A stretch of DNA of 64,000 nt, taken from an uncultured Vampirovibrio sp. GTDB lineage: Bacteria > Cyanobacteriota > Vampirovibrionia > Gastranaerophilales > Gastranaerophilaceae. Below are positions 18,469 through 18,957 of this stretch, one piece after another. Numbering within the stretch: the first letter of the stretch is position 1; each line of letters begins with the position of its first letter. The notes under the pieces are model-generated. The model made no database searches. It was not told the DNA's origin and saw only the letters and a list, made by a program, of their open reading frames with translations. Location of the stretch: assembly GCA_910583875.1 (NCBI GenBank), contig CAJTXT010000005.1, positions 72,104 to 136,103 on the forward strand, read 5' to 3'. Both the position numbers and the translations under genes were made by a program.

Positions 18469-18957
18469 ATGGAATTAGAAATAGGCTCAAAAGAGCGGGG
18501 GGGGGGATTTTTGACCAATCAAGAAACACAAAACACTACAAAAAGAGACATTGAAACTCTAAAAGTAAATGACTCTTGGAAAAAAAGATTTAGAATTATA
18601 GACAAGTATTATGATTCAAGTAAAAATTTTATATTTCAGTCTGTTATGAATGATGAATATAAAAATTTATCTAGAAAAGAAGCCATCAAACTTAATATTG
18701 GCATAAGATTTAATCATGGCGGTATCGGAACTTTTCTGGCAGGAGTATTTTTTGGTCCTTTTTATTATTTAGTCAAAGGAATGTGGTTAAAAGCTATTGT
18801 TTATACATTATTTTTAATTATTTTAATAAATATCTTAGCCTTTTTAATGCATATTCCAGAAAATGATCATTCTTTTGGCTCTGGACTATCTGTAATATTT
18901 GGATTGTTTGCTCCTTTTGATTATTATCGATTAAAAGTTTTAGGAAAACAGTGGTAG
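18469..18957 (+). CDS. DUF2628-like small membrane protein with a G10 tract in codons 10-13
   Basis: ATG at 18469 (the ORF track uses TTG at 18436). Two TM segments 'FLAGVFFGPFYYLVKGMWLKAIVYTLFLIILINILAFL'. Confidence 0.5.
   Translation: MELEIGSKERGGGFLTNQETQNTTKRDIETLKVNDSWKKRFRIIDKYYDSSKNFIFQSVMNDEYKNLSRKEAIKLNIGIRFNHGGIGTFLAGVFFGPFYYLVKGMWLKAIVYTLFLIILINILAFLMHIPENDHSFGSGLSVIFGLFAPFDYYRLKVLGKQW
18497..18506 (+). repeat. G10 homopolymer inside a coding sequence
   Basis: 'gagcggggggggggattt', ten consecutive G residues, translated as R-G-G-G. Confidence 0.95.

Follow-up and report, generated by a model that had tools for sequence, protein, structure and literature searches.

A run of ten G residues at the 5' end of a gene for a small DUF2628 membrane protein, in an uncultured gut Vampirovibrio sp. 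of the order Gastranaerophilales, whose members are nonphotosynthetic relatives of the cyanobacteria, is probably a slipped-strand contingency locus. The run is real and is one of 18 long G/C runs at gene starts in this genome, and it is therefore most likely a slippage-prone on/off switch. A switch that acts mainly by frameshift was considered fairly likely to be the true reading. Phase variation by strand slippage is a textbook subject in a few pathogens. The mechanism is well known; the lineage is one for which no report of slipped-strand switching was found, full-text literature searches having returned none for Melainabacteria or Gastranaerophilales.

A G10 tract at the 5' end of a DUF2628 gene

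The window, that is, the whole 64,000-nucleotide stretch of DNA that was analyzed, corresponds to C5:72104-136103 in a host genome (G000) of 15 contigs, 2.04 Mb, and 29.4% GC. Direct reading of the local sequence (aaaagagc GGGGGGGGGG atttttgacc) confirmed a G10 run at the predicted place, 28 nt into the open reading frame (ORF), where it forms codons 10 to 13 (CGG GGG GGG GGA), encoding Arg-Gly-Gly-Gly when read from the ATG at 18469 (MELEIGSKE-RGGG-FLTNQ...; N terminus predicted from that start, MELEIGSKERGGGF) (Table 1). The public gene calls also gave a 162-amino-acid (aa) product with an ATG start. In an in silico length series, tracts of 10 and 13 G's yielded the full protein from ATG 18469, tracts of 9 and 12 ended that frame at 14 to 15 residues, and tracts of 8 and 11 ended it at 27 to 28 residues. 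The proposed frameshift upon gain or loss of a single G accordingly held for the ATG frame, which was cut to 14 to 28 residues in silico, but an in-frame TTG at 18511 could bypass it.

The run is internal to a 169-kb contig, where its flanks are unique, and is away from the contig ends; another public assembly of the strain also shows G10. Each of the four recorded contigs of the strain encodes the exact 162-aa product and hence G10; one of them, compared directly, was 100% identical over 9.3 kb, so that the four are not independent. The 162-aa protein is the sole member of its 90% cluster, and two metagenome scans with gapped patterns, one for the G10 locus and one for the sister-species promoter described below, gave no matches. 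An Rfam search over the window detected only a tRNA and no structured RNA around the G10 run or around the G9 run of the same window, which is in a locally GC-rich region at distances of 86 nt from the start of the helicase gene and about 190 nt from that of kinase-like gene 1.

The product matched Pfam DUF2628 (PF10947) at residues 90 to 153 with 30.6 bits, above the gathering cutoff of 23 (E value, 4.9e-7), in agreement with the DUF2628-like identity first proposed for it. It had also been described as a protein with two transmembrane segments; the membrane segment was recovered, but the count is approximate, the hydropathy profile having one strong segment at about residues 104 to 132 flanked by two weaker hydrophobic stretches. 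PHROGs and NCBIfam contained no match for the 162-aa protein, and a phage or named-family origin was dropped on that account.

Table 1. Tracts, genes, and associated features. Bare positions are those of the window; C numbers are contigs of the host genome unless another genome is given.
Feature	Position	Strand	Details
G10 homopolymer, in first codons of the DUF2628 gene	18497..18506	+	C at 18496 5' of run, ATTTTT 3' of run; read directly
ORF of 162-aa DUF2628 small membrane protein	18469..18957	+	Stop 18955-18957 included; ORF translation, Pfam
In-frame TTG, candidate alternative start (148-aa product)	18511..18513	+	4 nt after tract; tract is candidate ribosome-binding site; N terminus predicted from this start, MTNQETQ
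Candidate promoter, TTGACA-17 nt-TACAAA	18436..18464	+	Putative; read by hand
G9 with 5' C	15606..15614	+	Divergent intergenic, between SWIM-SNF2 helicase gene (minus strand, start 15521) and kinase-like gene 1
GT2 glycosyltransferase gene, tract in first codons			Shine-Dalgarno (SD) sequence, ATG, 18-codon extension, G10 in frame, no later alternative start
772-778-aa Fe-S/polysaccharide pyruvyl-transferase fusion gene, tract in first codons
TupA-like ATP-grasp gene, tract in first codons	C1:426790		G11, out of frame with ATG; needs G12 or G9
144-aa gene, tract in first codons	C1:18396		C9, out of frame; needs C10
60-aa peptide gene, tract in first codons
Prepilin-type gene, tract at SD position	C1:656615		G12, 6 nt, TTG the only in-frame start; leader MSGKSA/FTLSE
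547-aa membrane protein gene, tract at SD position	C10:11616		G10, 9 nt, ATG
1238-aa type IIG restriction-modification enzyme gene, upstream tract			93 nt from gene
Intergenic tract between lipoprotein gene and TPR protein gene	C3:178756-178766		G11/C11
Radical-SAM gene, upstream tract
Several membrane protein genes, upstream tracts
Cassette copies	G003:C33, C21, C11, C47; G019:C245		Four about 1-3 kb apart on one contig
Divergent prepilin-type gene pair	G010:C8:44900-45486, C11:38700-39289, C16:17300-17900		At least three copies
Tandem peptide genes	C6:52258-52700		60 and about 64 aa
TupA-like copies with variable N termini (examples)	C1:425889-426755, C2:410791, C3:62873

Long G/C tracts in the host genome

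The length spectrum of G/C runs in the host genome was bimodal. There were 108 runs of length 5, four of length 6, three of length 7, and none of length 8, followed by 4, 7, 5, and 2 runs of lengths 9, 10, 11, and 12, respectively (n = 18), whereas A/T run lengths decayed smoothly with no excess. Such a bimodal distribution is as in genomes that keep hypermutable tracts. Under a chance model of independent and identically distributed bases, applied to the whole genome and both strands, about 0.11 runs of 9 to 12 were expected and 0.014 runs of exactly 10, which bears out the earlier statement that a G10 run is very unlikely to occur by chance. Slippage is frequent from about 7 to 8 G's upward, and a run of ten exceeds this length and is far above chance. 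A genome-wide scan for G/C runs of 8 or more relative to gene starts, as the original prediction had proposed, placed 16 of the 18 runs within 150 nt of a gene 5' end, compared with 24% of random positions (P of about 1e-8).

By domain assignment, the tract genes match the classes of gene found at contingency loci and include glycan, pilin, restriction-modification, and membrane-protein genes and the lipoprotein/TPR pair; surface, glycan, and restriction-modification genes were favored in the set as a whole, and some of them were in the OFF frame. The prepilin-type gene product was assigned as a prepilin N-methylation-motif protein, and the GT2 glycosyltransferase gene shares the architecture of the DUF2628 locus, an N-terminal extension followed by an in-frame G10. 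The two out-of-frame genes, the TupA-like ATP-grasp gene and the 144-aa gene, have ORFs that are otherwise intact, and they look like phase-OFF genes in a consensus assembly. The TupA-like gene has 17 intact paralogues whose N termini align just after the tract, and a paralogue in the sister species G021, likewise OFF, has G10 at the corresponding site. Visual comparison of the flanks of all 18 tracts, which are unrelated, led to rejection of a shared mobile element as their carrier in the host genome.

DUF2628 homologues in related genomes

No orthologue of the DUF2628 gene was found in any other sampled genome, the best matches being 45 to 50% identical. For comparison of tracts with the host genome, the closest DUF2628 match was 46% identical and the candidate orthologue of the 547-aa membrane protein was at most 49% identical. 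The homologues have in common a C-terminal APFDYYRLKVLGKQW motif, and they start 13 to 30 residues ahead of a conserved L-x-V-x-x-S-W-K motif; judged by their N termini, the first 14 residues of the 162-aa protein would be dispensable. Many members of the subfamily (P0007, P0010 to P0012, P0014, and others) carry one or two N-terminal zinc-ribbon modules (CPxCGEEI...CKHCGEFL) ahead of SWKxRF, a conserved motif, and of the membrane region, and the protein of the window is without them.

The nearest sampled relatives of the host genome are rabbit-gut MAGs. Five rabbit-gut species have a DUF2628 homologue (45 to 50% identical) with the tract in the promoter spacer, in the layout TTTACA-tttttcttc-G(n)-TAT(C/T)AT-...AGGAG...ATG. 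In one MAG the tract was G8, with a spacer of 17 nt; upstream of the identical protein from another sample it was G9, with a spacer of 18 nt. G9 was also found in two further rabbit-gut species, one of which had it in a second sample as well. In a fourth species the tract is replaced by GGGAGAGGG, which is of equal length and interrupted and is no longer slippery. Two sister-species contigs (L010 and L045) begin in the poly-G tract or 11 nt past it, implying that poly-G tracts fragment short-read MAGs and can hide the switch.

Within 400 nt of distant DUF2628 homologues from pig and other guts, all G/C runs were shorter than 6, which places acquisition of the tract in this lineage. Because the tract is at the coding 5' end of the gene here, is in the promoter spacer in the sister species, and is missing from the distant homologues, the DUF2628 family has, on comparison of these sequences, gained poly-G at least twice in the clade, at two control points. 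A double acquisition is hard to explain unless variable expression of the DUF2628 protein is useful.

Tracts, cassettes, and mismatch repair in the clade

Among 24 species of the same genus, about 13 had 20 to 77 tracts of at least 9 G's, three had none, and several had few; few such tracts were present in the other families of the order. In one species (G010), each gene of the divergent prepilin-type pair has G9 in its leader codons, with the two tracts about 207 bp apart, and all of the genes are out of frame and would be in frame at G8 or G11. In another (G003), a promoter cassette of the form TTGCTTC-G9-TAAAAGTGGTATAAT, followed by a conserved leader and an MS(E/N) start, was found in at least eight copies. 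Its variants included one copy with G11 and one with a degenerate, interrupted tract (GGAGGCGGGG); the orthologues of the interrupted copy in G021 and G019 are intact.

The MutS_I domain, the one mismatch repair component surveyed, was intact in 39 of 41 relatives, whether these were rich in tracts or free of them, and loss of mismatch repair was rejected as the cause of the tracts.

Flanking bases of the tracts

On the G strand, the base immediately 5' of the run was C in 14 of the 18 tracts in the host genome, compared with a background of 20% (P = 2e-7). Across 15 tract-rich genomes of the same genus, the 5' base was C in 297 tracts (53%) and A or T in 261, and the 3' base was C in 15 (2.7%) and A or T in 532. 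Duplicated cassettes account for part of this bias, but the 14 C-flanked tracts of the host genome have unrelated flanks. Tract strand showed no bias with respect to replication strand (11 versus 7 relative to local GC skew). The asymmetry hints at a DNA-level process and poses a small puzzle about how poly-G tracts arise.

Proposed switch and alternative explanations

In the favored reading, the G10 run would be a simple-sequence repeat prone to hypermutation and would belong to a genome-wide set of about 18 contingency tracts, at which strand slippage during replication would add or remove a G. At G10, or at G13 or G7, translation from ATG 18469 would continue past Arg-Gly-Gly-Gly and produce the DUF2628 protein; with 9, 11, or 12 G's, the early stop in the ATG frame would leave no full-length protein. 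A clonal population would always mix cells with and without this envelope protein, the glycan, pilin, and restriction genes would switch likewise and independently, and the OFF state may be leaky through residual initiation at TTG 18511. The original description of a classic slipped-strand on/off arrangement is favored by the genome-wide excess and bimodal lengths of the tracts, their 5' placement, the OFF genes, and the sister-species tracts, and it is weakened by the constant G10 of the contigs on record and by the doubtful start at ATG 18469, on which the frameshift reading hinges.

The only SD-like motif of ATG 18469 is AAGGA, ending 1 nt before the ATG. This spacing was found in 7 of 356 SD-bearing genes of the host genome (2%), compared with 44 of 356 for a spacing of 4 nt, which is in the usual SD window and is that between the tract and TTG 18511; the tract could therefore be the SD sequence of the TTG. 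Poly-G should be able to base pair with the anti-SD sequence CCUCC if one G-U pair is allowed, and a tract appears, from its position, to act as the SD in two other genes, that for the prepilin, which has a normal short leader behind its sole in-frame TTG start, and that for the 547-aa membrane protein with its ATG. The candidate promoter would end 4 nt before ATG 18469, so that the ATG may sit at or before the transcript start; its second hexamer is without the final T, which makes it weak, and the consensus promoter scan did not list it. Taken in this way, the tract would be noncoding, the mRNA starting near 18470 and translation at TTG 18511, with the G run as the SD sequence in a 5' leader. 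Changes in its length would then adjust expression or exert their effect by way of the upstream ATG frame, whose stop overlaps the TTG at G9 (TTTTGA) and which at G11 extends, out of frame, for 45 nt into the gene, making the tract a volume control and not a clean on/off switch. Initiation at the TTG could give a functional 148-aa protein at any tract length, and a product of this size would be normal for the family, given where the homologues start relative to the conserved motif; the homologue N termini are compatible with either the 162-aa or the 148-aa product, and a TTG-started 148-aa form was not on record. However, the gene callers picked ATG 18469, which needs no SD since only about a third of the long ORFs in the host genome have a 5-mer SD; the GT2 and TupA-like tracts sit inside translated N-terminal extensions; and a role as an SD sequence does not say why 9 to 12 G's are kept rather than GGAGG. 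A leader tract of this kind, which would modulate rather than switch, was judged rather unlikely.

It is improbable that the tract lacks any regulatory role and is a by-product left by a mutational process of the lineage that makes and keeps C-flanked G runs in AT-rich 5' regions. At the DUF2628 gene the run would then encode a harmless Gly3 in a disordered N terminus, which would agree with the strong flank asymmetry, with the unknown function of the DUF2628 family, and with the constant G10 in the four nonindependent contigs, but a neutral process would not concentrate the tracts near gene starts as observed, would not prefer surface and restriction genes, and would not produce two independent control points in one family. 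Runs of at least 9 G's are also known to slip readily in all bacteria studied (Campylobacter, Neisseria, and Haemophilus). An assembly or polishing artifact in the run or in its exact length is very improbable. Two-color Illumina chemistry yields poly-G artifacts, which were visible at the contig ends of some sister MAGs (e.g., G017:C108:1-32), and nanopore assemblies err in homopolymer length; nevertheless, the run is internal to a long contig with unique flanks, comparable tracts, also internal, were assembled independently by SPAdes from other samples at the homologous positions, the assembled length is the in-frame length for ATG 18469, and an excess of homopolymers is absent for A/T.

Comparison with known phase-variable systems

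The poly-G/C contingency loci of Campylobacter jejuni, which lie in capsule, LOS, and flagellar-glycosylation genes, have been catalogued by PhasomeIt (PMC6321876). The resemblance to the host genome is close: both genomes are AT-rich, with about 30% GC, about 2 Mb, and a few dozen G/C runs of 8 to 13 with almost no intermediates, and in both the tracts lie in glycosyltransferase and surface-structure genes, where single-base slippage shifts the frame. However, C. jejuni is without MutS/MutL-type mismatch repair, whereas MutS1 is present in the host genome. Furthermore, the tracts of the host genome are nearly all at the extreme 5' end (promoter, SD position, or first 20 or so codons), the host is an uncultured commensal and not a pathogen, and the bias toward a 5' C and against a 3' C seen in its clade was not found described in a literature search, including for Campylobacter.

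Neisseria has poly-G in the 5' coding region of pilC1/pilC2 and pgtA/lgt (PMC2193922, PMC2192423) and in the promoter spacer of porA/opc (PMC3639595). Both modes have counterparts here, in the first-codon tract of the host genome and in the -35/-10 spacer tract of the sister species' DUF2628 gene, and mismatch repair is likewise present. Unlike in Neisseria, the target is a small DUF2628 inner-membrane protein and not an adhesin, porin, or transferase. With MutS1 intact throughout, the clade is closer to Neisseria and Haemophilus than to the mismatch-repair-less Campylobacter, and slippage rates may be lower than in the latter. In Haemophilus influenzae, phase variation by simple-sequence repeats that depends on the 5' untranslated region has been reported (PMC12721329). 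The G10 locus would resemble that system if TTG 18511 were the start, the tract then lying in the leader RNA and acting posttranscriptionally, but the H. influenzae system has longer repeat units and an RNase III-targeted structure.

Possible significance

It is possible, and is put forward tentatively, that a clade of gut Gastranaerophilales has a large phasome, with 18 to about 77 poly-G tracts in each 2-Mb genome and with mismatch repair intact, and that the polar flanks mark a specific route of tract birth, spread, or upkeep and not simple slippage on chance runs. Such a phasome would have three control points, namely, the promoter spacer, the SD position, and the leader codons, with pilins, glycan enzymes, restriction enzymes, and small membrane proteins as targets, and its flank signature (a 5' CpG junction and almost never a 3' C) would come from a directional mutational process or a portable switch cassette. 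If slipped-strand switching in the lineage is real, common uncultured gut commensals would practice bet hedging with surface glycans, pili, restriction systems, and small envelope proteins, in parallel with Campylobacter and Neisseria and with a bearing on gut phage-host dynamics and host immunity. MAG annotation would also be affected, in that genes that seem broken at G tracts would be switches and not pseudogenes, and contigs would break there. DUF2628 would gain a first functional hint, the cell appearing to treat the protein as a variable envelope component.

Further observations on tract-bearing genes

The TupA-like ATP-grasp family (PF14305) is greatly expanded, with 18 paralogues in the host genome and 31 to 35 in two sister genomes, and its copies (examples in Table 1) have variable N termini, some of them headed by poly-G. 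The first of the two small tandem peptide genes on C6 carries C10, encoding PPP. The pair shares a D-x-S-F-I-D-D motif and is preceded by a TupA-like ATP-grasp gene and a gene of 417 aa, and the whole could be a modified-peptide cluster. The divergent promoters of the lipoprotein and TPR protein genes have a 7-bp hairpin (GCCGAAA...TTTCGGC) between them, and the G11/C11 run on C3 accounts for the larger part of its loop.
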